From a virus: DNA of 60,348 nucleotides. A program made the position numbers and the translations under genes. This document shows, in pieces, positions 1 through 60,348 of this stretch; the stretch's first letter is position 1; each line of letters opens with the position of its first letter. The stretch lies in UHGV virus genome UHGV-0030339. One strand, 5' to 3'. The notes beneath the pieces were generated by a model. It was given only the letters and a program-made list of their open reading frames with translations. It ran no database searches and was not told the origin of the DNA.

Positions 1-751
1 GATAATCTTTTCTGGTATTTGTTATTTTCTCATGGCATAATGCTATCTTTTTCTTTGTTTTGTAGTAATTTTGACTTTTTTTCTCTTTATGGGCTAACTG
101 CCTTTGCAGTTTTTCCAGTTTCTTCTCGTTTTTTCTGATAATTTTGGGATTTTCGTATTTCTTTCCACCAGAAGTAATACATAAATCCTTAATACCTAAA
201 TCGATTCCTGTATTTTGGGTTGTATGTGGCAATTCCACATGTTCTGTTTCCACTAAAACCGATACATAATATTTCCCACTCGGCACTTGTGATATCGTTG
301 CTGATTTTATCTGCCCGCTAAACTTTCTATGCAGTTTTACTTTTACGCCTTTTAATTTAGGCAATTTTACTTTGTTTCCATCGAAATCTACTGTTATGTT
401 GCCATTCGTAAAATTTGTTGTATATGATTTATGATTATCATGTTTACTCTTAAACTTTGGATAACCTGCATGCTCCCTAAAAAATTTCTGATATGAACTG
501 TCCATGTTATAAATCGCATTTGTTAAAGCAAACTTATCCACTTCTTTCAGCCATTCATACTCTTTCTTTAATTCCCTGTTGCAGTAATTATTACAATCTG
601 TTTTGCTGACAGATTTTTTCTCTTTTTCGTATCTTTCTTTCCGATATGCAAGTGTCTGATTATACACAAAACGGCAACAGCCAAATGTTTTTTCTATCTG
701 TACTTTCTGCTCATTATTGGGATATATTCTGTATTTATATGCTTTTAACAT
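1..751 (-). CDS. tnpB: TnpB (OrfB) RNA-guided endonuclease, N-terminal ~250 aa; same ORF continues at 60348..59996
   Basis: RC translation MLKAYKYRIYPNNEQKVQIEKTFGCCRFVYNQTLAY...GIDLGIKDL (RuvC-I) ...LCHEKITNTRKDY; the partial codon at pos 1 plus the last 2 nt of the window make CTT(L), followed by [12 protein letters not shown]... Confidence 0.85.
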   Translation of the reverse strand, partial: MLKAYKYRIYPNNEQKVQIEKTFGCCRFVYNQTLAYRKERYEKEKKSVSKTDCNNYCNRELKKEYEWLKEVDKFALTNAIYNMDSSYQKFFREHAGYPKFKSKHDNHKSYTTNFTNGNITVDFDGNKVKLPKLKGVKVKLHRKFSGQIKSATISQVPSGKYYVSVLVETEHVELPHTTQNTGIDLGIKDLCITSGGKKYENPKIIRKNEKKLEKLQRQLAHKEKKSQNYYKTKKKIALCHEKITNTRKDY

Positions 752-769
752 TCGCTGCCACCTTCTTTC

Positions 770-1189
770 TTAGCCTTGATTTTCGATATACTTTTTTAGC
801 ATTTCTTCTGATACATTTCCTACACTACAAGCAAAATAACCATCTGTCCAAAATGTATGTTCTTTCCAGAAATGCTTCCGCAAATAATTCGGATAGCGTT
901 TCCATATATGGTAAGTCGTATAACTTTTCATTAGGTTTACAATTTTACTCACCGACATTGTAGGTTCAGTTTCTATCATGTAGTGAATATGGTCTTTGTC
1001 AGTTTCCATGTATTTGATAATAACTTTGTGCTTTTGACATATCTCATATGAAAACTGCTTTATATCATCTGATACCTGTTGCGAAACCAGTAATTTCTTC
1101 CTATATTTGCAGACGAAAATAATGTGGTATTGTAATAAATATTTGTGTCTGTTTTTAGATTTCCATGTTCCCATATCATTAGCATACAA
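770..1189 (-). CDS. tnpA: IS200/IS605 TnpA (Y1 HUH transposase)
   Basis: 139 aa; HIH motif (DHIHYMIETEP), C-terminal ...TDGYFACSVGNVSEEMLKKYIENQ typical of IS200 TnpA. Confidence 0.9.
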   Translation of the reverse strand: MYANDMGTWKSKNRHKYLLQYHIIFVCKYRKKLLVSQQVSDDIKQFSYEICQKHKVIIKYMETDKDHIHYMIETEPTMSVSKIVNLMKSYTTYHIWKRYPNYLRKHFWKEHTFWTDGYFACSVGNVSEEMLKKYIENQG

Positions 1190-1204
1190 TAATTCTCAGC
1201 TTTT

Positions 1205-1249
1205 GGCTACCTTAACCCACCGTCTAAAGCCAGTGGGATTGCGGTAGCC
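1205..1249 (-). repeat. IS left-end subterminal imperfect palindrome (TnpA recognition hairpin)
   Basis: ggctacc..cccac-tggctttagac-ggtggg..ggtagcc; near-identical hairpin cccattggctttagacaatggg at 59893-59914. Confidence 0.7.
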
Positions 1250-1856
1250 TTATTTCAACAAGGTCAAGTCCTTTCTCTGGAGCATGACCAACTTCCTTTT
1301 TATAGATTTCATTTGCCTTGTCCAAGTCAAATTCCTCGCCAACTTTCAGCATAATGTGGTATTCCAACACAAACTGTGGCACATTGGCATTGTTGCAAAT
1401 CCTATACATCCTCCGCTGATTTCTCGCATACCAGCTAGGATTTTTTGGTATAGGTGTATTGCTTGGCTGGCAAACTGAAGATTGCTCCAAAGTTGCTGGT
1501 TTTGCTTTTGCACGGAAGTATGTGTTCACCAACTCCCTCTGGACTTTCCAAGATAAATCATCTGTAAAGGTTTTGACTATCATCAAATAGCCGCTTTCTG
1601 TAAGCAAATAAGTTATAAGGCTTGGATTTCCCTTAATTATTTCATTAGGGGAATATCGTTCCCCTAATTCTTTTCTTGTCATTTCAAAGTAATCCTCACC
1701 CAAAATAAAATGCTTTTTATGCTTTTGAAAAGATTTCTTTGCGGTATCTGTTTGCTTCCCATGTACTCTGTCAATGTCTTTTAGTGTCACAACTCTCTGA
1801 CCGTTGTACTCTCTCACTGGCATTTCAGTATTTTCAATAGTAATGACTTCTTTCAT
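1224..1856 (-). CDS. ORF6N-domain phage antirepressor-like protein; last ~11 codons lie inside the IS left end
   Basis: N-terminal ...EYNGQRVVTLKDIDRVHGKQTDTAKKSFQKHKKHF resembles ORF6N; paralog of 58937..59563. Confidence 0.55.
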   Translation of the reverse strand: MKEVITIENTEMPVREYNGQRVVTLKDIDRVHGKQTDTAKKSFQKHKKHFILGEDYFEMTRKELGERYSPNEIIKGNPSLITYLLTESGYLMIVKTFTDDLSWKVQRELVNTYFRAKAKPATLEQSSVCQPSNTPIPKNPSWYARNQRRMYRICNNANVPQFVLEYHIMLKVGEEFDLDKANEIYKKEVGHAPEKGLDLVEIRLPQSHWL

Positions 1857-2128
1857 TTTTTCATGCCTCCCCCAAATTCAATCTTGCCATTGGAAAGGCA
1901 CTTGCAGGCATATGCAAAACCCGCAATAAATGACTGCTCTTGAATACTCCATACCTGCTTATTTACAGATCTCTCAATTTCGTCTGCCAGTTTCTCATTG
2001 AGAATACCATAGACTTTCTTCCAGGCGTCATTATATCCCTGACCCCACGCAATTTTTTCTACTTCTCCAGAACTACACCACTGCTCATAAATCATCTTTG
2101 CAAATTCTTCCATTTTAAAATCCTCCAA
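1853..2128 (-). CDS. hypothetical protein
   Basis: 91-aa ORF translationally coupled to the downstream gene. Confidence 0.4.
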   Translation of the reverse strand: MEDFKMEEFAKMIYEQWCSSGEVEKIAWGQGYNDAWKKVYGILNEKLADEIERSVNKQVWSIQEQSFIAGFAYACKCLSNGKIEFGGGMKK

Positions 2129-2232
2129 AAATTATTGAAATTTCCGCAAGAATTTGATAGGATAGATTTATCAGTCCTTGCGGATTGGTGTTTGGAGTAG
2201 CCATAAGTCGGTCAAAACTTGTAGTGGCTACT

Positions 2233-2418
2233 CTATTTTTTTAAGTCCGAATAAAGTTTCTGAACGCCTCTGCGAATACTTTCTGCCCTTGTCTCGTTAT
2301 AATGCATTGCAACTACATCAAGTTGTTTAAGCTGCTCATCATCAAACCTAACTCCTAATTGCGTTTGCTTTGGCTTTTCGCTTTTCGGTCTTCCTGTTCG
2401 TGGACTCATGTTCTTCAC
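2233..2418 (-). CDS. small ribbon-helix-helix-like DNA-binding protein
   Basis: 61 aa, RPKSEKPKQTQLGVRFDDEQLKQLD pattern typical of RHH/CopG-like proteins. Confidence 0.45.
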   Translation of the reverse strand: MKNMSPRTGRPKSEKPKQTQLGVRFDDEQLKQLDVVAMHYNETRAESIRRGVQKLYSDLKK

Positions 2419-2530
2419 CTCACTTTTTGATTACCACAAATTTATATTACTTTATGATTACCAAAAAGTCAACCATAAAAAACAAAAAAATCAGGGAAGT
2501 TTTTCGCTCCCCTGATAATTCGTACCAATA

Positions 2531-2836
2531 TTAAACTTTCCATGTGTGACCGCAGTTCTGGCATGTGGCTCTGGTTTCAAGGATAGATTTTTCTTTTCCC
2601 TGAGTTTTTCCAACACCTACTTTATCACCTCTAAGAGTTCCAAAAAGTAATTTCCACAACCAGCCCATACACAAAAATTGTATTACGTCAATACACCAGC
2701 CAAAGCAAAGCCAATATAAACAGCCCTTTTTTCTAGGCTCTCTCATAACGATTTTCCCGGTAGATGTGCTACCGGTCTGTACATTCTGAACAAAAACATT
2801 TTCGCTTCCACATTTAGGACACTTCATAAAATCCAC
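2531..2836 (-). CDS. zinc-ribbon membrane protein
   Basis: CPKCGSE...CQNCGH flanking a hydrophobic W/L-rich core. Confidence 0.45.
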   Translation of the reverse strand: MDFMKCPKCGSENVFVQNVQTGSTSTGKIVMREPRKKGCLYWLCFGWCIDVIQFLCMGWLWKLLFGTLRGDKVGVGKTQGKEKSILETRATCQNCGHTWKV

Positions 2837-2903
2837 CCCTTGTATAATATTTGTGGATATTGTACCACATAAAAGGGCAAAAGAAAAGAGGCTCGGTGGC
2901 CCC

Positions 2904-3569
2904 TTATGCTGTCAGATATGCAATATCTGCAAATCTCTCCAATCTGTCTTTGCAGTCCTTGTAAATATCCTTATATGGCATATTCATTGACATGTCAATT
3001 CTGATTGTCTGTAAAATGATGCTTTCAACTAACGTCAGGTTATTCAGGTCGGTAACCGATGCAGCGTCCCGGTTTCCCCCAACAATTGACTTAGCCAGCT
3101 TCGTATATGTGAGATACAGTTTATCAGAATGCGTACTGCCCTGTTCTTTCGCATAATCAACAAGCATCTTGATCACATCAGTTTCTTTCAGCCGGTTTTC
3201 TTTATTGGCAAGTCTGGTGTCGTTCCACTGCTTTGACTGTTTTTCGCGAATAAATTCTCTCATTCTGATAAACTCGCTTGCCAGTCTTGCTTTGAAATTT
3301 ACTACCGCGCCATCTACGCCATCGTTTCTCAAAAGCGTCATCAGAAACATTGCCTGCCCCTCATTTAAAAAGTATATTTTTTCTTTTTGACCGTTTTTTG
3401 AAGGCTCCGTTTTAAACGTAACCTTTCCGAGCATAGGTGTTTTTTCAAACACTTCCTCATACTTCTGTATAATTTCTCTTACATTTTTGTGCTGATTTCC
3501 AGTTCCTTCCGCAATCATCTTGCTGTTTGTAAATACATCATTCCCTTTGAGTTCAACCAATTCATACAT
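2904..3569 (-). CDS. Rha-family phage regulatory protein (antirepressor-like)
   Basis: N-terminal NDVFTNSKMIAEGTGNQHKNVREII matches the Rha family signature. Confidence 0.6.
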   Translation of the reverse strand: MYELVELKGNDVFTNSKMIAEGTGNQHKNVREIIQKYEEVFEKTPMLGKVTFKTEPSKNGQKEKIYFLNEGQAMFLMTLLRNDGVDGAVVNFKARLASEFIRMREFIREKQSKQWNDTRLANKENRLKETDVIKMLVDYAKEQGSTHSDKLYLTYTKLAKSIVGGNRDAASVTDLNNLTLVESIILQTIRIDMSMNMPYKDIYKDCKDRLERFADIAYLTA

Positions 3570-3659: not shown

Positions 3660-6600
3660 TTAAGTAAAGCTAAATCCATTTCTGCTAATCCGGCTGTTAA
3701 TAGCACTGACAAGCTCGCGCCCGTCAAGACTAATTGACGTATCCTTGTCAGCAGTTTCCCTGGTATTCTCTGCAATCTGGGACAGATATGGAGCTAAGAC
3801 ATCTGCAACAGCTTCTCTTACTCCGGCAGTAATGCCAGCTACAATCTGCTCATTATTTGCTACTGCTGTCTTGCCATTAGAGAATTGGCCAACCATTTCA
3901 TTATGATTTGCAAAAAACAGACCATCTTCTGGAAACCCACCTACAGAGTATTTCGGAATGTCAACATGAGCTATTGCTCTAAAAGATACATGTGAAATGG
4001 TATCTTCTTGCATTTCCTTTGCCGCCTCATTGTAATCGCTGATCAGGTCATTCATGGACTCTGCAATTCTGGACAATCCAGTATTGAACAAGTCAATCAT
4101 GCCATTGACTAAATCTCCAACTTCTTTCACAATGCCTTTAAATCCAGAATAGATACCATCTTTCATATTAGTGCCAAATGGTTCCCATTTTTCCTTTGTG
4201 AACCACGTAGACACGTTATTGGTAAACCAGTTGTTGATATTGATATTCCACTGAGTTTCAAACTCTGTCCATTTGTCCAGAAGCGCAGTTTTGAAATGGT
4301 CGCCCTGTTCCTTCCACTTTTCAACGGTAAACCATGTTTTTACGTTAGTATTCCACCACGTATTAGTCTTTGTTTTCCACTGAGATACAAATTCGTCCCA
4401 CTTGGCAATAAGACCTGTTTTCATTCCGTCCGTTGTAGTTTTCCATTTTTCAGTGGTAAACCATGGAGAAACATTTGCACTAAAAAATGTTGGCATTGCG
4501 GTTCCAGACCACCATACAGCAGCTTGGTTCCATGCATTCATTAACGATGTCTTAAGATTGCCAAAAATAGGATCCAGTGCCGTAGTAGTAAAACTTGACG
4601 CAAGACCGGATACAGCGGTTGTACCAATCGTGCTAAACTGCGACTCGCTAAGGGTATCAGAAATGGTATTGTACACGTCAGTAGCAAATGTGCTGATCGT
4701 ATCAATGCCGTTGCTACTCTCAAATGGCTTTATCAATCCGTCCAGCATACCTTGACCTATCTCTTTCCACTTGGACTCAGAGAATATATCATAGACATCG
4801 TTTATGGTGTCAGAAATACCATTGTGCAGTCCTTCAATAAGGTAAACACCATTCTCATCCATGACAGTAGATGGAGAATGGATACCAAGAACATCTTTAA
4901 ATTTGTCAATAACTCCTTTGGCAACATTTCCAACACTCTCTTTGATATTATTCCAACCGTCTTTGATGCCATTAATCAAGCCTTCCATGAGGTATCCACC
5001 CATTTCCGCCATGACTTTCGATGGAGAGTGGATAATAAATACTGACTGAAATGCATTCATAAATGGAGTAAAAATGTTATCAGCAACCCACTGTCCTATT
5101 GACTTTAATGCATCTACAATACCCGTAAATAAGCCTGCAACAATGTCTCCGCCAGCCGCCTGGATATAAGTGGTAAAATATGTTTTAGTCGCGTTAAATC
5201 CATTCACAAGCATATTCCATACTTGTTGTGCAAGAGCTACCACCAGCGAAGAAAGCGCACCTAAATATGTGCCTAAGTATGTGAAATACGTGGTAATTAA
5301 TCCAGTATAGTTAAATGCAGTAACAATATTGTATAAGGCATTCCAAAGATTAGTTCCAATTTGTGCCCAGTCTACAGAAGCAAGACCGGATATTACGAAG
5401 TCAAATATACCTGTGGTAATTGCATAGCCGGCATCTACCAATCTCTGTGCCAGGCCACCCCAGTCAATACCTACCAGAAAATCCATAACTCCTTCGCCAA
5501 AAGCTCCCCAATCGGTTTCGTCAACAAAGGTAATAAGTGCATCAAGTAGGCCATTAACCACAGAGTTGAGACTTGTAGCCGCACCTGCCCAACTAAATGT
5601 TGAAGCAAATGTATTAAAACTAAGCGCCAAGCTGTTTCCCAAATTCGTCCAACTAAATGTTGTCGCTGCATTTTCCAATACTGTAAACGCTGCGTTTAAC
5701 CCATTAGCGAACATTTGTCCCAGTTCATCCCATTGAACCGTATCGACAATTCCATTAAGTCCGTCACCAATGAATTTTCCAATAGAGTCCCAGTGCGTAA
5801 CATCCAGAAGAGTATTGGCAAAATCTACAGCCGTGTTAACTGCCTGTCCAATTGTTGTACCAATTGATGTAGCCAAACCTTCTGTTTCAACAAAGCCATT
5901 GATGAAGGTTCCAATACTGGATGCAATCTTTCTGGCAGACTCCTGAATGCCGTCCCACGGGATAGAGTCAAGGCCGTTCTTAAGCCACTTTCCAACAGCT
6001 GATCCAAGTTCTGTAAAATCTCCGGCGTTCCACATGGACTTGATTTTATCAGCCCATTCTTTGTACTTGCTGTCAATATCTTGTGTCTCAAACATATCAG
6101 CAGCACTAGCGCCGCCGCTACCGCCGGATCCGCTATTTTTGTTTTGGTCTACAACATTCAGTTCGTCAATTCCAAGCGTATGGGTCTTAAGATCATCAGC
6201 AGCTTTTCCAGCCTTTCCAAGGCTTTTGGCATAGTCTTGTGTCTGTTTTTTAGCTTTAATCCATGTGCCATGTCCTGTAAGTGCTGAAAACAACTGATTA
6301 ACCGCATTTGCCGCATTGATACACAGTTGGATTATCGTGTTTAAAGCCGGGGCGAGTGCATTAAGTATTGGGGCTCCTGCCGCCGCCACAGAGTTTTTCA
6401 GCTGGTTTGTAGAATTCATTAACAATGACATGCTAGCATTGGTTTCACTGCTATATTTAACCAAGTTTTGCATGCCGTCAGTAAAGGCTTTTCTAAGTTT
6501 ATTGACCAATGCAAATAAAGTTCTTACACCAATTGCATATCTCAGTATCGTTCCCAGGTTTTTCAACAATGAATTATGAGTGCCTTTACTTGCACCTGTA

Positions 6601-8078
6601 AGTCCGGAAAATGCTTTTGAAAGTTTACTTTTAATCGCAGATGCCAATGAGACTATTGTTTTTTTTGCTACCTTTAAAGGTGCAGTCAATCCGGTTAATA
6701 TAGCTTTTTTGGCGGCACCTGCTGCTGCTCTAGCAGCCGCTCCAATAAGTGACAATTTGCCAGCAATTCCTGAAGCTGCTCTTTTTGCCAAATTTGGCAA
6801 ATCTCTAAAAGTCTGAGCTATCATGCCTTTCATATTTTGCAATTGACCTGATAAGCTGCTAGTATTCGGCCCGGCAATCGCCGCAGGTTGAGCGGGTACT
6901 TTTGCAGCTTCCTCAGCTGCTTGACGTGCGGACCCACGCATAGCATCTAATTGCGCTTTTAAGCTTTCAATCTGGTTTTCATACTTAACAACACTTGCAA
7001 TAGCATGTTCGTATGATTTACCATCTGTATCCCCTGAAAGTTCGATTTCTTGCTGTTTGAGCTTTGCATTTTCTAAACTGTTGGTCAGAGATTTTATCTT
7101 TGACTCAATTTCTTTTTCGCTGCCAGACATGGTAAAACTTTTTCCAAGTTCCGCATATTTTTCTCTGATTTCCTGAGCTTTTTCAGAAATGCTTTTGCTC
7201 ATATTTGACATTTGGTCATTGATTTCTTGGCTTGTCTCAGTAGCACCTTGAACCATTTCAGGGTTATTTAAGGCCTGTCCGGCCTGCGCACCATACTCAC
7301 TTACAGCCTGTGCCCAATCCCTAATCTGTGCTGCGGCTTCTCCAAATGTTGCAGCCATAGCATCTGCGTTATACTGCATATCAGAAACAGCCACTTTTAC
7401 AGCGTCTTGAACTTCGGTAATGTTTTCCTTGACGTTGTCTCCAAAAAGTTCTGATACATCATGTACATCAAACATATCGTCAAGTTTTGGAAATTCACCA
7501 TCAATCGTACCTGTAAACTCATTGGGGTTTGATTTTGTAGCCGCTACCTCTTGCGCCGCAGCAGCGGCTTCAATTTCAGCTTGTCTAAGAGCCTCAAGCT
7601 GTGATTTCAGACTTTCAATCTGGTTCTCATACTTGACAACGCTTGCTACAGCTTTCTCGTATGACTGACCGCCAGTATTTCCGGAAGCTTCTAATTCCTG
7701 CTGTTTCAAGCGTGCATTTGCTAAGGCGTTAGTTAAAGAGTCTACTTTTTTTTGAATTTGCTTTTCAGAACCGGACATGGTAAATCCCTTACCAACTTCC
7801 GCATACTGCTTTCTAATTTCTTCTAATGATTTAGAAACATTCTTTGCAAGCGCCGACGTTTGATCCTTAATTTGCTTGTTAATGGAATCAAGGCTTTTAC
7901 CACTATCTTGGGAAGCCTTAGAAAAACTCTTTCTAAAGTCAGATAGGGTAGAATTTTTTTTTAACGCAGAAATACCTTCTGCCACAAGCCCTAACTTTTT
8001 TATAAGCTCATCAAGGCTCTTACTTGCTTCGTCAGCTGTAGTTTTAACTGATATTTCCAGAGAATCTACTTCTGCCAT
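3660..8078 (-). CDS. tail tape measure protein
   Basis: 1472 aa; duplicated coiled-coil blocks; IHSPS/HSPS motifs; W-rich tandem repeats (WFT.EKW); long Ala/Gly-rich segments. Confidence 0.9.
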   Translation of the reverse strand: MAEVDSLEISVKTTADEASKSLDELIKKLGLVAEGISALKKNSTLSDFRKSFSKASQDSGKSLDSINKQIKDQTSALAKNVSKSLEEIRKQYAEVGKGFTMSGSEKQIQKKVDSLTNALANARLKQQELEASGNTGGQSYEKAVASVVKYENQIESLKSQLEALRQAEIEAAAAAQEVAATKSNPNEFTGTIDGEFPKLDDMFDVHDVSELFGDNVKENITEVQDAVKVAVSDMQYNADAMAATFGEAAAQIRDWAQAVSEYGAQAGQALNNPEMVQGATETSQEINDQMSNMSKSISEKAQEIREKYAELGKSFTMSGSEKEIESKIKSLTNSLENAKLKQQEIELSGDTDGKSYEHAIASVVKYENQIESLKAQLDAMRGSARQAAEEAAKVPAQPAAIAGPNTSSLSGQLQNMKGMIAQTFRDLPNLAKRAASGIAGKLSLIGAAARAAAGAAKKAILTGLTAPLKVAKKTIVSLASAIKSKLSKAFSGLTGASKGTHNSLLKNLGTILRYAIGVRTLFALVNKLRKAFTDGMQNLVKYSSETNASMSLLMNSTNQLKNSVAAAGAPILNALAPALNTIIQLCINAANAVNQLFSALTGHGTWIKAKKQTQDYAKSLGKAGKAADDLKTHTLGIDELNVVDQNKNSGSGGSGGASAADMFETQDIDSKYKEWADKIKSMWNAGDFTELGSAVGKWLKNGLDSIPWDGIQESARKIASSIGTFINGFVETEGLATSIGTTIGQAVNTAVDFANTLLDVTHWDSIGKFIGDGLNGIVDTVQWDELGQMFANGLNAAFTVLENAATTFSWTNLGNSLALSFNTFASTFSWAGAATSLNSVVNGLLDALITFVDETDWGAFGEGVMDFLVGIDWGGLAQRLVDAGYAITTGIFDFVISGLASVDWAQIGTNLWNALYNIVTAFNYTGLITTYFTYLGTYLGALSSLVVALAQQVWNMLVNGFNATKTYFTTYIQAAGGDIVAGLFTGIVDALKSIGQWVADNIFTPFMNAFQSVFIIHSPSKVMAEMGGYLMEGLINGIKDGWNNIKESVGNVAKGVIDKFKDVLGIHSPSTVMDENGVYLIEGLHNGISDTINDVYDIFSESKWKEIGQGMLDGLIKPFESSNGIDTISTFATDVYNTISDTLSESQFSTIGTTAVSGLASSFTTTALDPIFGNLKTSLMNAWNQAAVWWSGTAMPTFFSANVSPWFTTEKWKTTTDGMKTGLIAKWDEFVSQWKTKTNTWWNTNVKTWFTVEKWKEQGDHFKTALLDKWTEFETQWNININNWFTNNVSTWFTKEKWEPFGTNMKDGIYSGFKGIVKEVGDLVNGMIDLFNTGLSRIAESMNDLISDYNEAAKEMQEDTISHVSFRAIAHVDIPKYSVGGFPEDGLFFANHNEMVGQFSNGKTAVANNEQIVAGITAGVREAVADVLAPYLSQIAENTRETADKDTSISLDGRELVSAINSRISRNGFSFT

Positions 8079-8142: not shown

Positions 8143-8922
8143 TTAAAAATTTCCCACATCCTGTTTGCCATCTGAATTTGTCAAGTACAATGCACACTCA
8201 TATGGATGTCCTGATCTAGGCTCAAAGTAATACCAACTATCGCCAATCTCTTGCCAGCCAGTTACCGCATATCCATCTTTGTTGAAATAATACTTATGAT
8301 GGTTGATAACTTTCCAACAATTTTTGCAATATGTTGATTTCGTATCTGCATACCACCAACCATTGCTATCATGGTTCCATCCAACAGTGTATGAATTACT
8401 TTCTGCAAGGGTCCAATCCGGTCTTCCATATCCATCAATTCTGCTGTTGTTAAGATTATACGATTTTTCGCAGACGGCACCACCATTGGCGACAACTTCT
8501 GCACCACTGCTGGTATTACCTTCAATCGTATAGACTTTCCCACCGGAAACTTTTATTACAATTCCGGTGTGGCATATTCTTGACGAATTGCGAAAAAAAA
8601 TCTGGTCTCCTGGTTTGGGATCAGATTTGTGGTATTGGCCCTTATTTTTAAAATATTGTGCAGACGTAGGAGTATAAGCGCTAAAGCCATCACACAACAA
8701 TTGTTTAGCTTTTACTGAACCAAAGGCTTGTACAAAACACCAGTCTACGAACATATCACACCACGCTTGACCTTGAAGTGACGGATAAATATCCCTGGCA
8801 TACTTTGTGTAATTATTGCTACCTGCATTGCCGGTTTTACTATCTAGAATATCATTTGACCTTTTTTCAAGATATCCAACTTCTGCTTTTGCAATTCCTA
8901 TTAATCTGTCAACTACGCTCAT
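8143..8922 (-). CDS. CHAP-domain peptidoglycan hydrolase with C-terminal cell-wall-binding repeats (endolysin or virion lysin)
   Basis: QAWCDMFVDWC (Cys) and ICHTGIV (His) catalytic motifs; C-terminal GW...WYY choline-binding-type repeats. Confidence 0.75.
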   Translation of the reverse strand: MSVVDRLIGIAKAEVGYLEKRSNDILDSKTGNAGSNNYTKYARDIYPSLQGQAWCDMFVDWCFVQAFGSVKAKQLLCDGFSAYTPTSAQYFKNKGQYHKSDPKPGDQIFFRNSSRICHTGIVIKVSGGKVYTIEGNTSSGAEVVANGGAVCEKSYNLNNSRIDGYGRPDWTLAESNSYTVGWNHDSNGWWYADTKSTYCKNCWKVINHHKYYFNKDGYAVTGWQEIGDSWYYFEPRSGHPYECALYLTNSDGKQDVGNF

Positions 8923-9281: not shown

Positions 9282-9322
9282 TAACCAATACGGCCGTATT
9301 TCTTTACAATATGTCTGCCAGG

Positions 9323-9799: not shown

Positions 9800-9808
9800 T
9801 TATCTTAC

Positions 9809-10309: not shown

Positions 10310-10359
10310 AGTTTTACCTCCTGAATTTTCATAAAAAAATAAGAGCCATAAGCCCTTTA

Positions 10360-12382: not shown

Positions 12383-12471
12383 CGCCGCAAAAAAGTGTGC
12401 CCCCTGCTACGTTTTGTTGACCTCAACAAAACCATAACGCACAATCTTCTAACCCCCTCGATATCGAGGGG

Positions 12472-32509: not shown

Positions 32510-33859
32510 TTAAAAAGTAACGAAACGAATTTCTATATCGTTTCCGCTAATAACAATTCTTTCAATACATTCTTTCAAAACTCGGTTTTTCTCCTTAACA
32601 GAAAGCGTGTCCCAAACATCCGAAACATGCTTAATCTCTTGGATTTTTTGGGTATTATCTGGTTCCTTTCTATCATTTTCAGTTAAAAGTTGTTTGTTCA
32701 GTTTTTCAATTTTCTTTTCCGTCTCCTTGATGACGTCCATCAAGTTTTTACTTGGATTATCTGCATAAAGTACATATAAACGTTTGACATGCTCATTTTC
32801 TTTTCTAATTGCTACTTTGAGCTTTGCAACCGGATCATCTTTCGGTCCACTATTCGCTTTAACATTGATAGCAAACTTTTTAAAGCAGTCTTCCACATCT
32901 GCTTCTATAATCTCTGCATATGCTTTAATGTTAGTGCAGTTTTTATCCCGAATCATGTAACTCTTGCCACTGTATTGCGAGTAGCAAATAATGCGTGGCT
33001 TTATTCCGTCCCATTTATGATATCTCATCCTAGCACCACATATTCCACAGTAACACAGTCCACTTAACAAATAACCATTTGACACATGAGCATTTGTTGA
33101 ACGCTTTTTTTGCATATCTTGAACCAAGTAAAAAGTTTCTTCGTCAATGATAGGTTCATGCTTGCCTTTATAGACATTGCCTTTGTATTCAATTAATCCA
33201 ATGTATGTTTTACGCTTAAGCGCATTTTTCACAACATTTTCACAGCTAAATCCAAGAATATTAGCAATTTTATCACATGAGTATCCTTTCAGGTAAAGTC
33301 TAAATGCATCACGAACCAGAGCTGCCTTATCAGTATTGACATGGAGTATTCCGTCATTTCTATCGTAATAATACCCAACAGGAATATTTCCACCACCAGG
33401 CCAAAGACCGTTTTTTACACGTTCAACCATTCCTGAAGACATCCTCATTCGGATGACTTCCCTCTCATACTGGTTCATTGCTGCGTTCATAGTCAGCATC
33501 ATTCTATCCATTGGATTTTCTGTCCGCAACTCTTCTGTCATGGACACAACCTTTACTCCATATCCAGGAAGTGTTTTGTAGAACAAAGTCAGTGTATCAA
33601 TAACATCACGACTCATACGATCCAATTTATAGATGTACACCGTATCTATGATTCCACTTTTTGCATGTTCAAGCAACTCCTGTATCTCCGGTCTATCAAG
33701 TTTACTTCCACTATACCCCCCGTCTATGTACCATTTGTCAATAGTAATACCATGTTTTTCACAGTAATCCATGATTTTTTGTTTCTGCATATCCAAGCCG
33801 TATTTTTCAGTCTGTGTCTCTGTTGATACTCTCAAATATGCCACTTGCAATTTGCTCAT
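32510..33859 (-). CDS. large serine recombinase (phage integrase)
   Basis: N-terminal YLRVSTETQ...DRMSRD resolvase catalytic domain plus zinc-ribbon/coiled-coil C-terminus; 449 aa. Confidence 0.85.
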   Translation of the reverse strand: MSKLQVAYLRVSTETQTEKYGLDMQKQKIMDYCEKHGITIDKWYIDGGYSGSKLDRPEIQELLEHAKSGIIDTVYIYKLDRMSRDVIDTLTLFYKTLPGYGVKVVSMTEELRTENPMDRMMLTMNAAMNQYEREVIRMRMSSGMVERVKNGLWPGGGNIPVGYYYDRNDGILHVNTDKAALVRDAFRLYLKGYSCDKIANILGFSCENVVKNALKRKTYIGLIEYKGNVYKGKHEPIIDEETFYLVQDMQKKRSTNAHVSNGYLLSGLCYCGICGARMRYHKWDGIKPRIICYSQYSGKSYMIRDKNCTNIKAYAEIIEADVEDCFKKFAINVKANSGPKDDPVAKLKVAIRKENEHVKRLYVLYADNPSKNLMDVIKETEKKIEKLNKQLLTENDRKEPDNTQKIQEIKHVSDVWDTLSVKEKNRVLKECIERIVISGNDIEIRFVTF

Positions 33860-45106: not shown

Positions 45107-45131
45107 TTTGTACAGTTCACAGCCCAATTTC

Positions 45132-45503: not shown

Positions 45504-45507
45504 TTAC

Positions 45508-51575: not shown

Positions 51576-51764
51576 CTAACTACTGACTAGCTCAGCCACT
51601 GTAATTCCAGTTACCTTTGCGATTTTTTCAAGGGTATCCAATGATGGTTTGCTACCCTTTTCCCATCTTCCGATAGTTCCATTTCCGATGTTACATTTCT
51701 TTTCAAACGCCGCAATCGAAAGACTGTTTTTCTCGCAATACTTTATGATTTTTTTATAAATCAT
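51576..51764 (-). CDS. Cro-like XRE HTH protein
   Basis: 62 aa, HTH LSIAAFEKKCNIGNGTIGRWEKG. Confidence 0.7.
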   Translation of the reverse strand: MIYKKIIKYCEKNSLSIAAFEKKCNIGNGTIGRWEKGSKPSLDTLEKIAKVTGITVAELVSS

Positions 51765-51977
51765 AAAATCGTCTCCTTTCTCTAAATATTTAGAGAAAAG
51801 TCTATTGACTTTAATTATATAGCGGTCTAAAATATGAATTGTCCAGAAACATATTTTTAGAGGCTTTTCTATATTATTTTTAGGCTTTTCTCTAATTCAT
51901 AAGCCAATTATATAGACTAACCTCTAATTTGTCAACCCTATTTTTAGAGTTTTACCTAATTTTTTAGGAGGTAGTCA
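51765..51977. promoter_or_regulatory. divergent promoter/operator region with repeated ATTTTTAG(A/G)G motifs and palindrome TCTAAATATTTAGA
   Basis: repeats at ~51781, 51854, 51877, 51942, 51962; TTGACT-17-TAAAAT at 51805-51833. Confidence 0.55.
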
Positions 51978-52322
51978 ATGAACGCAGTAGAACGGGTAAA
52001 AGCCATATGTAAACAGCGAAAAATACCAATTTCTAAACTAGAAACTGATTTAGGATATGGAAATGCATACATATCCAGATTAAAAAAAGGCGTATTCCCC
52101 AATGATAGATTAGAGGAAATAGCCAATTACTTAAATTTATCGTCTTATTATCTTTCCACCGGGGAAGAAAAATCCCCTAATGAATTGCCGGATCAGTCTG
52201 AATTATGGAAGAAAATTCGCCATGATGAAGCACTGCTAAGTGCTTTAGAAAAGTACATGAAACTTTCAGACAAAAAGAAAAAGCACGTTCTTGATACAAT
52301 CGACGTGCTTAGTGAGGCGTAA
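51978..52322 (+). CDS. CI-like XRE HTH repressor
   Basis: 114 aa, HTH ISKLETDLGYGNAYISRLKKG, divergent from the cro-like gene. Confidence 0.7.
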   Translation: MNAVERVKAICKQRKIPISKLETDLGYGNAYISRLKKGVFPNDRLEEIANYLNLSSYYLSTGEEKSPNELPDQSELWKKIRHDEALLSALEKYMKLSDKKKKHVLDTIDVLSEA

Positions 52323-53800: not shown

Positions 53801-53890
53801 TTGTTCTGTTCCTTTCTTGATTGTGATATACTGTTAATATCTTTTTACTTTTCTACAAATTTCTGCACCACACCCATTACCTGTTGATAC

Positions 53891-53933
53891 TATACTTTAT
53901 GGGAAGTCGATTTTTGGTGTAGCGGGGAATGTA
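53891..53933. repeat. inverted repeat L of the tail-fiber invertible segment
   Basis: tatactttatgggaagtc 18-bp perfect core; ~43 bp imperfect IR with 54527-54570. Confidence 0.75.
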
Positions 53934-54263
53934 AGACGATATGCTTATAAAAGTGGAACTGTTAATTCGTCTTCTGGTACACTGGCTTTTAAGGAAAGTG
54001 GTGGTTCAACCTATTATCTTCATTATTGTCAGATAAACAATATAGGATTTACCCCTATACTGGCTGTTTTTTTTGGTAGTGGTCACGTAACAATAGTTAG
54101 CAGTGGTGGCAATATAAACTTAGAAGCACAAAACGCAAGTGGAACCGGATATTATGCGAAAGGTTCCAATAGTAATGTAGTATTTAGCAGTTCTAAAGTA
54201 CAGGTGCCATCCACGTATCCTAGTGCAAATCCACATTGGTATTTTATAGCTGGATATTATTAA
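53891..54263 (+). other. promoterless alternative tail-fiber C-terminal cassette (no start codon) inside an invertible segment
   Basis: + frame encodes TILYGKSIFGVAGNV...AGYY*, paralleling ILYGKSIFGVSGNV...VTGYY* of the minus-strand gene. Confidence 0.7.
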
Positions 54264-54913
54264 TAGTATCCTGTAACGTAGTAATTGTATGTAAAATTAG
54301 CTGTAGTAACTTTTATTGTGATTGAATTACCATTTCTTGTTGGTGTAGATGTAGGCATGCTTGGGAGAATTAATGTATCTCTTGGATTCCATGGTACAGT
54401 TATTGATACATCTCTAGGATCTTCCACTTTCATCAAAATCCAGGATGTCACATAAAATCCAGGATTTAAAGTAACATAACCATTATTGTTTGAATTAACC
54501 TGTCCACTTCGAGATGCGTGCTGACGTACATTACCACTTACTCCAAAAATGGACTTCCCATAAAGTATATTATTACCAGTTAAATTCCCATCACCTTTGA
54601 TAACAATATCGCCGGTCATTTTCTTACCACTGCATGATACTGTCTGTTGAGCCGTATTAGGCGTATAAGTCCCACCACTCATCGTACCCATGGTGCCGGT
54701 CTGCTTGCTTTTGGGATTGGTGGTATAGAAAGTTTTACCGGATAACACATCACCGGCTCCGGCATCGCCACTAAGGGTTAGTGTACCTGTTAAAGGCTCT
54801 CCATCTACGCCAACAATTACCTTTCCAGACAAAACATCGTCCGCTGCGGCTGATACAACATCGAGGTCAATTCCACCACTACCACCAATCATTAATACCT
54901 GTCCCATGGTCAT
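54260..54913 (-). CDS. tail fiber / receptor-binding protein with switchable C-terminus
   Basis: DVLSGK..Y repeats; C-terminal half lies within the invertible segment. Confidence 0.65.
   Translation of the reverse strand: MTMGQVLMIGGSGGIDLDVVSAAADDVLSGKVIVGVDGEPLTGTLTLSGDAGAGDVLSGKTFYTTNPKSKQTGTMGTMSGGTYTPNTAQQTVSCSGKKMTGDIVIKGDGNLTGNNILYGKSIFGVSGNVRQHASRSGQVNSNNNGYVTLNPGFYVTSWILMKVEDPRDVSITVPWNPRDTLILPSMPTSTPTRNGNSITIKVTTANFTYNYYVTGYY
54527..54570. repeat. inverted repeat R of the tail-fiber invertible segment
   Basis: reverse complement of IR-L, located inside the fiber gene at codons ~115-129. Confidence 0.75.
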
Positions 54914-55368: not shown

Positions 55369-55775
55369 CAGGTTCTCACTCCTTTCACATTCCCAAGTCT
55401 AAATGCTAATACTGGCAACCCAGCTTCCAGCCTGTTCAACATTTCATAGATTCTTAATGTCGCAGACTCTATCCTGTTCAACTCATTCCATTGGATAAAT
55501 GCTCCATTGCTGTAAAAGGTAGATGTCATGCCTATATTCTGGGTGTAAACGTTTTTGTTGATGGTTTCCAGATTCTTCTCAAAATTATTGATTTCTTTGG
55601 CATACGGATAATCCGCATACCCTTTATCAGCTCCCATATCAATAATTCCAAAATTAGGGTAAAATTGTTCTGCTCTTTCATGCAGAAAATTCAAGTTCCC
55701 TTTTATCCGATTGTAATCACTGGCATTGAATCTGTCAGAAGATTCCCAATCAGTTTTAGGTTGTATCCATGGCAT
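55368..55775 (-). CDS. tail fiber N-terminal/collar-like protein
   Basis: MPWIQPKTDWESSDRFNASDYNRIKGNLNFL motif common at N-termini of Firmicutes prophage fiber proteins. Confidence 0.45.
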   Translation of the reverse strand: MPWIQPKTDWESSDRFNASDYNRIKGNLNFLHERAEQFYPNFGIIDMGADKGYADYPYAKEINNFEKNLETINKNVYTQNIGMTSTFYSNGAFIQWNELNRIESATLRIYEMLNRLEAGLPVLAFRLGNVKGVRT

Positions 55776-58078
55776 TACTCCACCACCTTCCTAGCCTTTA
55801 ATGTGCCGCTCCAAGCACCGCTATAATTTAGCTCGTTTTGATATGCACGTATCATTGTCTTATCCCTGTCTTTCAATTCCAGAAAGAATAAATCATTAGC
55901 ATCTGTACGTGGGTCTCCATTCCAAGGGATTTGATAATCAACATCGCCTAGATAATATTCTGCTAACCATTCTTCCTGGTCCTTCGCCAACTTTTCTTCA
56001 CTGATGAGCGGATTATTCCATGTCTTATTCACTCCTGTATCATTGTGCTTTGCAGTATAAGACTTTTCTAATACCACATATTCGTATCCGCTTACAGAAA
56101 TCTGAATGGAATCCCCGACTGTACCTGTAACTTTGATATTCGCATAATAATTGCTGCTCGATACTATTTCGACCACTGCTGTTCCTGAAGTAACAGATAC
56201 TTCCAGTCCATATGCAGGATTTGTAAAATATATCGTCTTTGTTATTTCTTCGCTATCAAGTGTCAATTCCTCTGATGTCAATTCAGTGATTTCCGCTTGC
56301 GACATGCTGTATATATTTCGTTTAACCGTAATGGACTGAATTTTCTCTTGCCTAGTAGCTACAGGAGATCCTTTTAAATTAAAATCTCGTGACAGCGTAT
56401 AATCTGTTGAGTCTCCAAATGATACTTTATCAACTGTTATCCTTGCATTAGGATATCCTTTCGAAAAAACGATTTCCATTTCATCGAATTTTTCAAGTTG
56501 TTCTTTATACTCACTATGCAGTTGTGGATTTTCTATCTCAATATCTTGTACCTGTTCTTGTTGATAATAAGTGATAATATGGTATTTCTGAGGTGCTACA
56601 TTACGAAAATCAATTGAAAATCCAAAACATGTGTATCCTGTTTCTAAGTCAATATTAATTTTAGGAATATCTTCAAAATCACCATTTGAATCCGCTATAC
56701 TATCACTAACGTACCCTGTATCTTTTGAGTACTCCGCTTCATTCTCCGGCAGAAACAAAACAGATCCGTCAACCAATGAAAAATCATTACTATACATGGC
56801 ATAGCCTATACGCTGATCTTGTTTCAAAACATTCTCAACATGGCTAAACTTTGTCTCGTTGTTAGCAGCTTTAATACCGGCCGGTAAAACATCCGCTCCT
56901 GGATACAAAAATCTACTCGGATATACAAGATCAATACCGGCACTGGCATACATGTCTGGCAGAAATGATGATTTTATCCATACCCTTCCTTGCCGGTCAA
57001 CACTTAATACACATCTGCCTGCATTTGAGATTATCTGTAATGCCTCTGAATGTTTTACCACCGGAACAGGATTATACACCTTAACATTTTGCAAATATGG
57101 ATCAACCACGTACTCATCTGTTTTCATACCGGCATCTTCCAGTACATCTAATGCCAAATCATAAAGTGATATTCCTTCTGGTCTATACAATCCCCTGTAA
57201 TACGTCCCATTCAATTTCCAGTCAAACACATCAACCATTGTGAATTTGGCTTCTGTATCAGTTGCGCTCCAAGATTTTAAAAATGCTGTAATTTCAGGAA
57301 CCCATTCAATATTCCTAGTCCCATCCAGATCATATCCAAATGACACTTTCATTTGCTGTCCTTGTTCCATATAAGCAACTGCTGATTCTGGATTATCTGG
57401 ATTGTAATATAGGTTCTGATTATCTACAGTCAAAGTCATATCTTGGCTTGGAAGCGATTCACAAATCGTTGATACATAATCCTTATAAGTAAATGATTTC
57501 ACTTGCTTATTTGAGAAAGTATTTGAAATTCCACATGTAAATTCCAAAATCCTCATTCTTCCCTGCCCATTAACCATTGTCAGTGGGGTTATCCGCAAGA
57601 AAGAAATAGCATCGAATGTATCTTCTGTAACGAAATTCCGGGAAGAATTTTCATAGGTTTGTGTGCCATTATCAGATTGAACTGTAAATGAAGTTGGGTA
57701 ATATTCGCCAAAATCAATTGTCAAGCCTTTTATGTCTGCCACATTGCCGTCAAAGTTAATATATACTGAGCCTTGGATTTTATCTGGAACCAAGCCATTA
57801 TTGTAATAGGCATATCCGTCATCCTGCTCTGGAAGAAAATACATTGTGCCGTCAACCTTGGCAAAATCTTCTTCCAGTGTAGCGTATACCTGGCTAACTG
57901 TATTACCTTTAAATGCTGCTGTTGTATTTGCAAAATAGGCAAAATCATTGTCTGCTTCACTTGCCACTATATTATTTTGTGCTATTGAACTAATAATACC
58001 AATCCTGGCAGTGATATAACCACGATTCCTATTAGGTTTTCGCATGGCTTTTTTATAAGCTGCACTTACAGTTTGCAT
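55775..58078 (-). CDS. tail-associated protein (Tal-like, prophage tail endopeptidase family N-terminus)
   Basis: 767 aa following a Dit-position gene. Confidence 0.55.
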   Translation of the reverse strand: MQTVSAAYKKAMRKPNRNRGYITARIGIISSIAQNNIVASEADNDFAYFANTTAAFKGNTVSQVYATLEEDFAKVDGTMYFLPEQDDGYAYYNNGLVPDKIQGSVYINFDGNVADIKGLTIDFGEYYPTSFTVQSDNGTQTYENSSRNFVTEDTFDAISFLRITPLTMVNGQGRMRILEFTCGISNTFSNKQVKSFTYKDYVSTICESLPSQDMTLTVDNQNLYYNPDNPESAVAYMEQGQQMKVSFGYDLDGTRNIEWVPEITAFLKSWSATDTEAKFTMVDVFDWKLNGTYYRGLYRPEGISLYDLALDVLEDAGMKTDEYVVDPYLQNVKVYNPVPVVKHSEALQIISNAGRCVLSVDRQGRVWIKSSFLPDMYASAGIDLVYPSRFLYPGADVLPAGIKAANNETKFSHVENVLKQDQRIGYAMYSNDFSLVDGSVLFLPENEAEYSKDTGYVSDSIADSNGDFEDIPKINIDLETGYTCFGFSIDFRNVAPQKYHIITYYQQEQVQDIEIENPQLHSEYKEQLEKFDEMEIVFSKGYPNARITVDKVSFGDSTDYTLSRDFNLKGSPVATRQEKIQSITVKRNIYSMSQAEITELTSEELTLDSEEITKTIYFTNPAYGLEVSVTSGTAVVEIVSSSNYYANIKVTGTVGDSIQISVSGYEYVVLEKSYTAKHNDTGVNKTWNNPLISEEKLAKDQEEWLAEYYLGDVDYQIPWNGDPRTDANDLFFLELKDRDKTMIRAYQNELNYSGAWSGTLKARKVVE

Positions 58079-58084
58079 TTGCTA

Positions 58085-58513
58085 TCACTCCAGTCCTGCA
58101 TCAATCAGATTAAACTTGCAGTTTTCATACTTGGTTACTATATGGCTCTCCGGATCTGCGAACAATGGTTTAGCTTCACGGTCTCCAGGATACATTGTTA
58201 TGGTTATCGGCTTTCCGGTTCTATAATCTTCAAATGTTACCGGAACGTAAAAAGGTTCAACTGCTCTCAACATCATCTGCCAGACTTCCGGTTCAAGCAT
58301 GGCCCATTCAAGGTTATTCAGCTTATACAGATCTCTACCCACTCGTTGACCTATGACGGCATTGTTAGCATTTCTTCCGGCATTGACAGTTGTTGTGATG
58401 ATATAACTAAATCCAGCCTTAGGACAGGGAAAGTCATATCCATTCACGTTCAGGAAAGCTGTTAGACCTGATCCAGTAACCTTTGTTGTTTGCGCCATTA
58501 AGTACACCTCCAT
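58085..58513 (-). CDS. distal tail protein-position gene (short, 142 aa)
   Basis: position upstream of Tal. Confidence 0.35.
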   Translation of the reverse strand: MEVYLMAQTTKVTGSGLTAFLNVNGYDFPCPKAGFSYIITTTVNAGRNANNAVIGQRVGRDLYKLNNLEWAMLEPEVWQMMLRAVEPFYVPVTFEDYRTGKPITITMYPGDREAKPLFADPESHIVTKYENCKFNLIDAGLE

Positions 58514-58936
58514 TCATTGGCAGTAATCTTTTTATCCCCCAAAAGGTAAAATCAGGGGACTTTTTCTTTTTAGATTATTACGTAAGTAATAATCTTTTTC
58601 TTTTTAATTTCTTACATTCTTATATTCTTACATTCTTTATATTCTTACATTCTTGTTTTGTGGTCCGCCTGGTAGTTCAAGTGGTGGTTCAACAGGTAGT
58701 CCATTAGGTGGTTCAATAGGTAGTTCATCTGGTGGTTCGTTGGTTGGTTCAATATTTTTTCAAAAAGTCCGCAAACCGTTGATTTTACTAGCTTTTTCGG
58801 CTATCAATATCAGTTCGCCAGTTGGTTCACATACATAACACTACTTGAGCACCAAAGTGAACACCAACCACACACCAAAACGATCACTCAGCGATCACGT
58901 TTTTTGGGTGCATTTTACCGACTGGAATGAGCTGAT

Positions 58937-59563
58937 TTAAAGCTCATAATCTGGATAAACAGCTTCCCAAACATCTTTATGATAAGCATTAATCGACCCA
59001 TAATTAGCGTCGAAGATCTTCTTGACTTCGTACCCCATACGTTCCCCAGCCTCTTTTAGCCTTCTCCATTTGAATGTTTTCCAAGAAACATTATTCAGTG
59101 CTGCTACTCGCTTGATAGAGTACCAATCTTTGCTTGTATCAAGCTGTGCCTGTAGCTCTGCTTCCCGATCCAGGCTTTCCAAAAGCTGTGCGATAGCGTC
59201 CCGGTAAGACATCGGCATATTCATCTTATCGTCTTTCTTCTGGAAGTAATTGTCAACTAGGCGGTCATACACTTCCCATGCCTGATCCGTATTCAGTGAC
59301 TTAGCGTGAAGAAAAGCACCTTTTTCTGTCCAGAGGTAAATTGTTTTTGCATTTTTCAGACCGTCGTGATTTTCCAGACGGTTCACAAATAAGGTCTTTT
59401 CTTCGTTTTCAAGTTTTATAAAATGTTTTCCTTCTACAAAACGATCAATATTGTGGTTAAAATTGTACGAGATTGTTTTTCTGTCCGTTCCATACGCTTC
59501 CGCAATCTGCTGTGTGGTCAATACTCTCTGGCATCTGTACTCTGTTACTGTTAATCCTTCCAT
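58937..59563 (-). CDS. ORF6N-domain antirepressor-like protein (paralog of 1224..1856)
   Basis: RVLTTQQIAEAYGTDRKTISYNFNHNIDRFVEGKHF. Confidence 0.55.
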   Translation of the reverse strand: MEGLTVTEYRCQRVLTTQQIAEAYGTDRKTISYNFNHNIDRFVEGKHFIKLENEEKTLFVNRLENHDGLKNAKTIYLWTEKGAFLHAKSLNTDQAWEVYDRLVDNYFQKKDDKMNMPMSYRDAIAQLLESLDREAELQAQLDTSKDWYSIKRVAALNNVSWKTFKWRRLKEAGERMGYEVKKIFDANYGSINAYHKDVWEAVYPDYEL

Positions 59564-59874
59564 CCAATTATCTCCTTCTGTATTTTAAGCAACAAAAAAC
59601 GCCCACCAGACATAGATTTTCTACATCTAGTGAGCGTGATTCTTAAACTGTTTTTGCCGTCCTTGCTCAGCTCGTCCTATCCTTTAAGCCTTGTTTTTCC
59701 CGCAACGGCTATTGGGCAAAGCTGATGGATTCGGCTAAATTTTACCCTTTTATTATACCTGTTTTGGGCTGGAATATCAAGGTTTCTTGAGCATTTACCT
59801 CAGTCTTCTACTAAAATAAAATCTGTCAAGTTCTTCCAAGCGGTCAAGATAATCGTCTGCGGTTTTCCCAAGGT

Positions 59875-60080
59875 CTGTGAAGTGGTGAACTACCCATTGT
59901 CTAAAGCCAATGGGCTTCCTGCTTCCCTGACCTCGTAACCTACTATCTCCACAGGCGTTAATTCGGGCAGTTCCTGCCCTATGTTGTTATTCCTTTTATG
60001 CTATTTGTCTTAATCCTTCTTCCAGTATATTCTTCGCCGCATTGATATCCCTGTCATGATTCGTTCCACAGACGGGACAT
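59875..60080 (-). ncRNA. candidate TnpB omega-RNA (reRNA) scaffold covering the tnpB 3' end and RE
   Basis: established architecture of IS200/IS605 TnpB systems; no sequence-specific verification possible here. Confidence 0.35.
59893..59914 (-). repeat. IS right-end subterminal hairpin
   Basis: cccattggctttagacaatggg (minus strand). Confidence 0.7.
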
Positions 60081-60348
60081 ATCCATTCCCTTACTGTCAG
60101 ATTTTTCGTCTCTGTATTTTGGTATCCACAGACTGAACACAACTGACTACTGGCATAGAAGGTATCTATTTTGACATATTCCCTTCCATTCCATTTTGCC
60201 TTGTATTCCAACTGCCTTGTCAGCTCATACCATGATACATCACTTATTGACTTTGCCAGATGATGATTTTTTACCATATTCTTTATCTGCAAATTCTCCG
60301 AGACTATCACTTGGTTTTCGCTGATAATCTCATGGGATATCTTGTGAA
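59996..60348 (-). CDS. tnpB: TnpB C-terminal part (RuvC-II E, zinc finger, RuvC-III)
   Basis: ...[44 protein letters not shown]. Confidence 0.85.

Follow-up and report, generated by a model that had tools for sequence, protein, structure and literature searches.

The window, which here denotes the whole 60,348-nucleotide stretch of the virus genome UHGV-0030339 that was analysed, begins and ends inside a single gene, tnpB. This gene is the second of two in a 1717 bp element, an insertion sequence (IS) of the IS200/IS605 family, which lies on the minus strand at positions 59885..60348 and 1..1253 and is laid out in the order left end (LE), tnpA, tnpB, right end (RE). The IS interrupts an ORF6N anti-repressor gene. 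It is very probable that the window represents one full turn of a circularly closed, 60,348 bp genome of a human-gut tailed phage, cut at an arbitrary point within tnpB.

The insertion sequence spanning the window ends

The tnpA gene (770..1174, minus strand) codes for a Y1 (HUH) transposase of 134 amino acids, which matches the Pfam profile Y1_Tnp over profile positions 2-121 of 121 (E = 9e-38). It is situated upstream of tnpB and separated from it by 18 bp. The minus-strand tnpB reading frame starts with the ATG at 751, runs to base 1, resumes at 60348 and ends with a stop codon whose last base is 59996, giving a product of 367 amino acids. The 5' part of the gene (1..751, minus strand) carries codons 1-250 and the first base of codon 251, including the HTH domain and the RuvC-I residue D184. 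The 3' part (59996..60348, minus strand) extends from the last two bases of codon 251 to the stop and carries the RuvC-II residue E268, two CxxC motifs and the RuvC-III residue D351.

Upon joining the last 1500 to the first 1500 bases of the window, the minus-strand translation is a single open frame across the junction. The window starts with gataatc... and finishes with ...cttgtgaa, base 1 being g and the final two bases aa. The junction codon is therefore composed of C(1), T(60348) and T(60347), i.e. CTT, which is Leu251 of TnpB. The joined protein contains the Pfam domains HTH_OrfB_IS605 (residues 1-46), OrfB_IS605 (residues 165-278) and Cas12f1-like_TNB (residues 290-358), each of which clearly exceeds its cut-off. 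Across residue 251 the OrfB_IS605 match is unbroken, covering profile positions 2-119 of 120. Among solved structures, ISDra2 TnpB (8bf8, 8exa, 8h1j) aligns with the joined protein in a single stretch, over residues 3-363 (E = 2e-87). The RuvC triad D184, E268 and D351 and both CxxC zinc-ribbon motifs are intact. A first-pass annotation, made from the sequence alone, had described the frame as leaving base 1 and continuing at 60348 with the expected TnpB sequence. Both statements are borne out: there is one 367-residue open reading frame (ORF), the junction peptide is read identically, and the search that the annotation had proposed, with TnpB profiles against the joined ends, gives three TnpB domains, one of them unbroken over the junction. 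That annotation had treated tnpB as a lone gene; this part is superseded, since tnpB belongs to a complete tnpA-tnpB element, while the description of the ORF over the junction stands.

The two ends of the window share no terminal repeat or overlap, and hence no base is duplicated or missing at the join. A 60-mer spanning the junction is matched exactly in five other loci (L004, L008, L009, L012 and L016; comparison loci carry L numbers throughout), which rules out that the in-frame continuation of tnpB is due to chance. An unrelated IS copy of 90% identity in GenBank record MT838469.1 also aligns over the junction without an insertion or deletion. When the junction was used as a query against the GenBank phage records, the sole match, by way of the IS, was one unannotated 5-kb scaffold; a megablast search of window positions 1200-24000 against the same records found no match. 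At the level of the assembled sequence, the two ends join with single-base precision.

The boundaries of the IS were established by comparing ten loci that carry an identical TnpA with the window. The element starts invariably with ATAAGGCTACCGCAATCCCACTGGCTTTAGACGGTGGGTTAAGGTAGCC..., which forms an imperfect hairpin, and ends invariably with ...CCCATTGGCTTTAGACAATGGGTAGTTCAC. LE (1175..1253, minus strand) has its first base at 1253, a boundary on which six independent insertion contexts and the empty sites described below agree. Its imperfect hairpin, GGCTACCGCAATCCCACTGG-CTTTAGA-CGGTGGGTTAAGGTAGCC, is located at approximately 1205-1249, with CCCAC..GTGGG nested in GGCTACC..GGTAGCC. RE (59885..59995, minus strand) has its last base at 59885 (...GGGTAGTTCAC|) and contains a hairpin, CCCATTG-GCTTTAGA-CAATGGG, at about 59893-59914. 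By analogy with ISDra2 (PMC8612924), RE is presumed to form the scaffold of the omega RNA (reRNA), and the 16 nt on its 3' side, CACTTCACAGACCTTG (59869..59884, minus strand), are expected to be the guide segment of the window copy. Both hairpins are retained in every IS copy examined and are subterminal, as opposed to terminal inverted repeats. Directly 5' of LE is the pentanucleotide 5'-TTGAA-3' (1254..1258, minus strand), the target and transposon-adjacent motif (TAM), which precedes LE in six of the six independent contexts. Empty sites read TTGAA and then the flank, showing that there is no target-site duplication. At the sequence level, the element thus has every feature of an IS200/IS605 (IS605-type) insertion sequence.

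The rebuilt IS aligns with the copies in L008 and L016 at 1717 of 1717 positions with one mismatch and no gaps, and with four further copies with either no gaps or only 1-2. The copies are 99-99.9% identical while lying beside unrelated chromosomal and phage genes. Six loci (L009, L010, L012, L015, L016 and L017, at ~9890-11700 in each) have a common chromosomal flank at LE and three different flanks at RE, that of L016 being phage baseplate DNA. This points to rearrangement mediated by the IS or to chimeric metagenome assembly through it.

A tnpB gene can also exist as a domesticated gene outside any mobile element, and domesticated TnpB relatives are known (PMC10705468). In that case the position of tnpB at the window ends would be incidental. 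Two of the phage relatives, L033 (19349-20452) and L036 (19022-20125), do have a tnpB-only ORF of 367 amino acids, with no adjoining tnpA called, elsewhere in the same accessory block. In the window, however, an intact tnpA precedes tnpB by 18 bp, canonical hairpins stand on either side in LE and RE, and the RuvC triad of TnpB is intact. The whole 1717 bp unit recurs, nearly identical, in unrelated chromosomal and phage contexts, and close phage relatives lack precisely this unit. Domestication of the window tnpB is thus extremely unlikely.

The interrupted anti-repressor gene and closure of the map

The IS separates the ORF6N anti-repressor gene into a 5' part of 201 codons (1254..1856, minus strand) and an orphaned 3' part of 29 codons and a stop (59795..59884, minus strand), which are situated at opposite ends of the window. 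The ORF called at 1224-1856 ends nine codons into LE. When the IS is removed in silico, 1856-1254 is fused to 59884-59795, the 3' part is again in frame, and an intact ORF6N anti-repressor ORF results. Its C terminus, ...GLDLVE|HFTDLGKTADDYLDRLEELDRFYFSRRLR, is collinear with that of a 227-residue protein (...GLDLVE|HFADLGKLADSYLDRLEELDRSYFGR) of the IS-free relative L002.

In L002, positions 9082-9684 correspond to window 1856-1254 (96.5% identity) and positions 9685-12555 to window 59884-57011, with zero bases between them. The flanks abut in the same manner in L003, L005 and L007. The empty site, CCTTGTTGAA|CACTTC..., is present in a total of 11 IS-free relatives, in which the two IS flanks are thus side by side. 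In L029 (~19339) and L037 (~19705), the empty site consists of TTGAA followed by 17 nt identical to the RE flank of the window. The motif at this position varies, being TTGAC in L032 (~19223) and TTCAC in L035 (~19624).

A further line of evidence is provided by contig k141_239344 of the European Nucleotide Archive assembly ERZ27287414, which is 60,489 bp long (60,348 + 141). One piece of this contig (L004) is 100% identical, without gaps, to the window from 902 to 1 and then from 60348 to 48937, thereby crossing the junction. A second piece (L020) is 100% identical to window 43859 to 22510, with an offset of -761. Between the two pieces, the coordinate mappings are shifted by exactly 60,348, so that the contig spans 762..60348 and 1..902, which is one turn and 141 bases. 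The 141 nt at 762..902 (no strand assigned) would be the end overlap at which the assembler closed the contig, as deduced from the coordinates and the size of 60,489 bp. A terminal overlap equal to k usually indicates that a de Bruijn-graph assembler has followed a circular path, and 141 is also the number in the contig name. Most likely, the window was obtained from a de Bruijn-graph contig by trimming its k = 141 terminal overlap and rotating its start.

The order of the tail genes agrees with this. The tail tape measure protein gene lies at 3660-8078 and, reading along the minus strand, the distal tail genes (54-58.5 kb) follow it only by way of the junction. The largest of these (55775..58078, minus strand) codes for a 767-residue protein, which has no Pfam match and no sequence match in the Protein Data Bank (PDB). 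Its AlphaFold model, calculated from 24 homologues, has a pLDDT of 70. A Foldseek search with this model found baseplate-hub proteins at probabilities of 0.97-1.00, namely the Mu-gp44-like 3cdd and 3d37, T4 gp27 (1k28), the Milano baseplate (8fqc; TMt 0.62), the NF5 tail-associated lysin (9m7n) and several VgrG proteins. According to the model, the protein has the baseplate-hub fold of gp27, VgrG and Mu gp44 and would be a baseplate-hub or Tal-like distal tail protein. In unbroken linear contigs of relatives, the genes of the tape measure protein, Rha, the two ORF6N proteins, a 137-residue protein and the 763/767-residue protein occur in the same order. The predicted hub fold and the conserved order support the proposal, made in the first-pass annotation, that the distal tail genes continue the tape measure region through the junction.

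The adjacency of the two window ends is thus shown in four independent ways, by the continuity of the tnpB ORF and its domains, by the complete 1717 bp IS, by the 100%-identical contig that crosses the junction and by the 11 empty sites of the relatives. The map can therefore be drawn as a closed circle, as had been claimed. The claim that the whole phage genome is present likewise holds. All modules are found, and the terminase, portal, capsid, tail, tape measure, hub, switch, RecT, SSB and recombinase genes form a full complement in single copy. There is no second long internal repeat or duplication in the window, which is therefore a single genome unit; a concatemer or a duplicated window is ruled out on the same grounds. 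The contigs of relatives are mostly 55-60 kb long.

Several points weigh against such a reading. The contig k141_239344 may be the source of the window itself and not an independent assembly, and its terminal overlap is deduced from coordinates and size. Circularity was judged from assembled sequences as opposed to reads, coverage or the assembly graph. Rfam, which contains no omega RNA family, gave no match for the RE region presumed to form the RNA scaffold, and the predicted folding of this region is only slightly better than that of shuffled sequences (z = -1.7). The IS is, moreover, a very common repeat. The public collection lists an identical TnpA in 4948 blocks, and for 4500 of these the contigs are shorter than 2 kb, as is typical of a collapsed repeat. 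Three of the loci with the common chromosomal flank (L009, L016 and L017) differ in what follows RE, a Logan assembly of the same phage (L006) breaks 28 nt inside RE, and the ends of k141_239344 themselves lie within the IS, at 762-902.

These properties of the IS would be accounted for if the circle were false, i.e. if a segment of chromosome or prophage between two direct IS copies had been closed through the repeat by the assembler or by a program that detects terminal repeats. As the IS is multicopy and seems to have linked or rearranged some metagenome contigs, closure through it is by itself weak evidence, and the argument is carried by the empty sites of the relatives. In 11 relatives that lack the IS, both flanks abut at the TTGAA site, which is evidence independent of any assembly across the IS. 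Removal of the IS gives an intact ORF collinear with that of the relatives, whereas two flanking IS copies could not have restored a single gene. Both flanks are, in addition, DNA of the phage tail region, in the order found in the relatives. A false circle is therefore very unlikely.

Physically, the DNA could be a plasmid-like circle, an excised prophage or permuted linear virion DNA, and this too has to be set against a closed circle. It is about an even chance that the map is circular while the virion DNA is linear, either permuted and terminally redundant by headful packaging or with cohesive ends, which would be compatible with the closed map. Among the products of the genome are an SPP1-type portal and a large terminase that contains an RNaseH-like nuclease domain. 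Phages with such a portal and terminase often package by the headful mechanism, and permuted and cohesive-end genomes both assemble as circles. Pfam scans of the window proteins revealed neither plasmid partition genes nor a replication initiator. Nothing in the sequence argues against linear virion DNA, although a replicative or excised circular form would also be required if the phage is temperate. The term "closed circle" in the first-pass annotation is consequently retained for the map and not for the virion, since linear genomes that are permuted or terminally redundant are assembled as circles too.

The record can thus be regarded as a complete genome and should be annotated as circular. 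Without this, tnpB and the ORF6N anti-repressor gene, broken up by the linearisation point and the IS, would each be annotated in pieces. The window also serves as a worked example of how a metagenomic circle that is closed through a multicopy IS can be validated, the empty sites of relatives giving the proof that reads would otherwise supply.

Known systems and possible spread of the element

The closest characterised relative of the window IS is ISDra2 of Deinococcus radiodurans. In both elements a Y1 TnpA gene is followed by tnpB, the LE and RE hairpins are subterminal, and insertion takes place 3' of a pentanucleotide without target duplication. The TnpB proteins align over 361 residues (E = 2e-87), with the RuvC D/E/D triad and the zinc ribbon conserved. 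The target of ISDra2 is TTGAT (PMC8612924), however, as opposed to TTGAA, and its TnpB has 408 residues compared to 367. The hosts also differ, being Deinococcus in one case and a gut phage or gut bacterium in the other, and the window element is known from its sequence alone.

The IS605-family TnpB of Geobacillus stearothermophilus cuts donor joints and thereby retains the transposon (10.1101/2023.03.14.532601). Filled and empty sites can be compared in the window lineage as well, the TAM and the RE flank forming the "donor joint" in relatives that lack the IS. These donor joints are located in sibling phage genomes instead of sister chromosomes, and cleavage and homing are in this lineage deduced by analogy.

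The window IS has inserted 3' of TTGAA within the ORF6N anti-repressor gene, which belongs to an accessory block between the tape measure and baseplate-hub genes. On the model of ISDra2 (PMC8612924) and the Geobacillus system (10.1101/2023.03.14.532601), the sources for both peel-and-paste transposition and RNA-guided, TAM-dependent cleavage by TnpB, its activity would be as follows. TnpA would excise one strand as a circle and re-insert it 3' of TTGAA ("peel and paste"). An RNA covering the 3' end of tnpB, RE and about 16 nt of flank would guide TnpB to empty sites flanked by TTGAA. Cutting of an empty site by TnpB would then be repaired by recombination, reinstating the element.

The IS could, by extension, act as an RNA-guided gene drive or as a weapon in competition among co-infecting sibling phages. 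The analogy is to plasmids (PMC11870625), and such a role is unlikely. Since the empty sites of L029 and L037 have both TTGAA and a perfect 16-17-nt match to the RE flank, TnpB and the guide RNA of the window phage could cut them, with recombination copying the IS in. If there were such a drive, the TTGAC of L032 and the TTCAC of L035 would be escape alleles. The truncated anti-repressor might shift the decision between lysis and lysogeny.

With respect to assembly, the window resembles those circular viral contigs of de Bruijn-graph metagenome assemblies that have a terminal overlap and are taken as complete genomes, its sibling k141_239344 being exactly 141 bases longer. It differs from them in that the overlap lies within a multicopy IS, where closure can be false, and was validated here by the empty sites of relatives. 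Helicobacter pylori prophages (PMC5311958) are likewise phage genomes with a host-derived IS200/IS605 element; they belong to another phage lineage and carry another IS, the comparison being by description and not by sequence. The biology is ordinary and already known, in that a common IS200/IS605 element of gut bacteria is found in an abundant lineage of uncultivated gut phages. IS200/IS605 elements are well known in phage genomes (e.g. PMC5311958), as are circular viral contigs, and the window is a new instance of both.

Gene order, lifestyle and other features of the genome

The packaging, head and tail genes are all on the minus strand. They begin with a possible small terminase (20512-21036; no family match) and the large terminase with its RNaseH-like nuclease domain (18141-19919), followed by the SPP1-type portal (15885-17387), a Mu-F-like protein, the major head protein (13096-14202), connectors, the major tail protein (9809-10309) and the tail chaperones. 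Between the chaperones and the tape measure gene lies a gene (8143-8922) for an endolysin-like protein with a CHAP domain and choline-binding repeats. The tape measure protein (3660-8078) has 1472 residues and matches phrog_1535 (E = 1e-52). Downstream of it are Rha (2904-3569), a zinc-ribbon protein and the interrupted ORF6N gene. The first gene past the IS codes for a second ORF6N anti-repressor of 208 residues (58937..59563), followed by a 142-residue protein, which had no useful match in a PDB sequence search, the 767-residue hub protein and three small proteins. Elsewhere on the circle are a cI/Cro-like switch (51576-52322) and genes for AntA/KilAC, an AAA_23 ATPase, RecT, SSB, a PAPS-reductase-like protein, DUF4417 and MazG. 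An exact look-up of the truncated anti-repressor, the tape measure protein and the CHAP protein in the public collection returned no record, and that of Rha returned 2-kb contigs only.

The odd position of the CHAP and choline-binding gene, upstream of the tape measure gene, is retained in all relatives. The protein may point to a Gram-positive host whose wall polymers contain choline. Gut Firmicutes in which this IS is found, e.g. GCA_046984565.1 and GCA_003481765.1, are likely hosts. Genes of the anti-repressor type are unusually many (five), including Rha, the two ORF6N genes and AntA/KilAC, and are located at 1224-3569, 58937-59563 and 50201-50965. About 4 kb of anti-repressor genes separate the tape measure and baseplate-hub genes, an arrangement kept across the lineage. 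In L028, L029, L034 and L036 the first gene codes for a large terminase of 936-946 residues with a LAGLIDADG domain, which suggests an intein or the insertion of a homing endonuclease.

A large serine recombinase of 449 residues (32510..33859, minus strand), with the Pfam domains Resolvase, Recombinase and Zn_ribbon_recom, is a candidate integrase. Together with the cI/Cro-like switch and the five genes of the anti-repressor type, it suggests that the phage is temperate. Neither attP nor an integrated copy was located, all fetched contigs with an identical recombinase being phage-only. The search for homologues of the recombinase gave contigs of at most 92 kb, none of chromosomal size. A genome scan with the recombinase found only relatives of 55-60% identity, whose flanks share at most one to three genes with the window and contain no clear junction between phage and host. 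It had been stated that there are no attL and attR ends to look for. This is correct for the window sequence, but the serine recombinase makes an attP site, and integrated copies bounded by attL and attR, likely.

A diversity-generating retroelement is situated at 43912-46718 (minus strand). It is composed of a reverse transcriptase (43912-44934), a template repeat (~45000-45112), a bAvd-like protein (45132-45503) and two variable repeats, at 45508-45620 in the gene of a DUF6273 protein and at 46122-46234 in that of a 199-residue protein. The variable repeats lie at the 3' ends of these two adjacent target genes. In the AAC-rich stretch of the repeat core, a comparison by hand of the template with the first variable repeat placed every difference at an adenine of the template.

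A type II hammerhead ribozyme (Rfam RF02276) is located at 25663-25727 on the plus strand, where it scores 61.2 bits, the gathering score being 37. It directly follows the stop of a plus-strand ORF of 123 amino acids (25292-25663). The ribozyme lies within the 24-27 kb block, the only one in which the GC and AT skews, and with them the strand bias, run opposite to those elsewhere in the genome. Two tRNA genes, Ile(TAT) and Gln(TTG), are found at 21069-21141 and 21443-21516 (minus strand), just upstream of the packaging genes.

A 92-nt inverted repeat (53877-53968 and 54492-54583) has arms that are 75% complementary and 523 nt apart. One arm is within a gene for a tail-fibre-like protein of 217 residues and the other is in the ORF-poor stretch downstream of it. 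The repeat could bound an invertible or cassette-type segment that determines host range. A protein with a metallo-beta-lactamase fold is encoded at 39164-39883 (minus strand), for which the precomputed Pfam annotation of the collection (L020) gives a faint match to the anti-Pycsar protein Apyc1.

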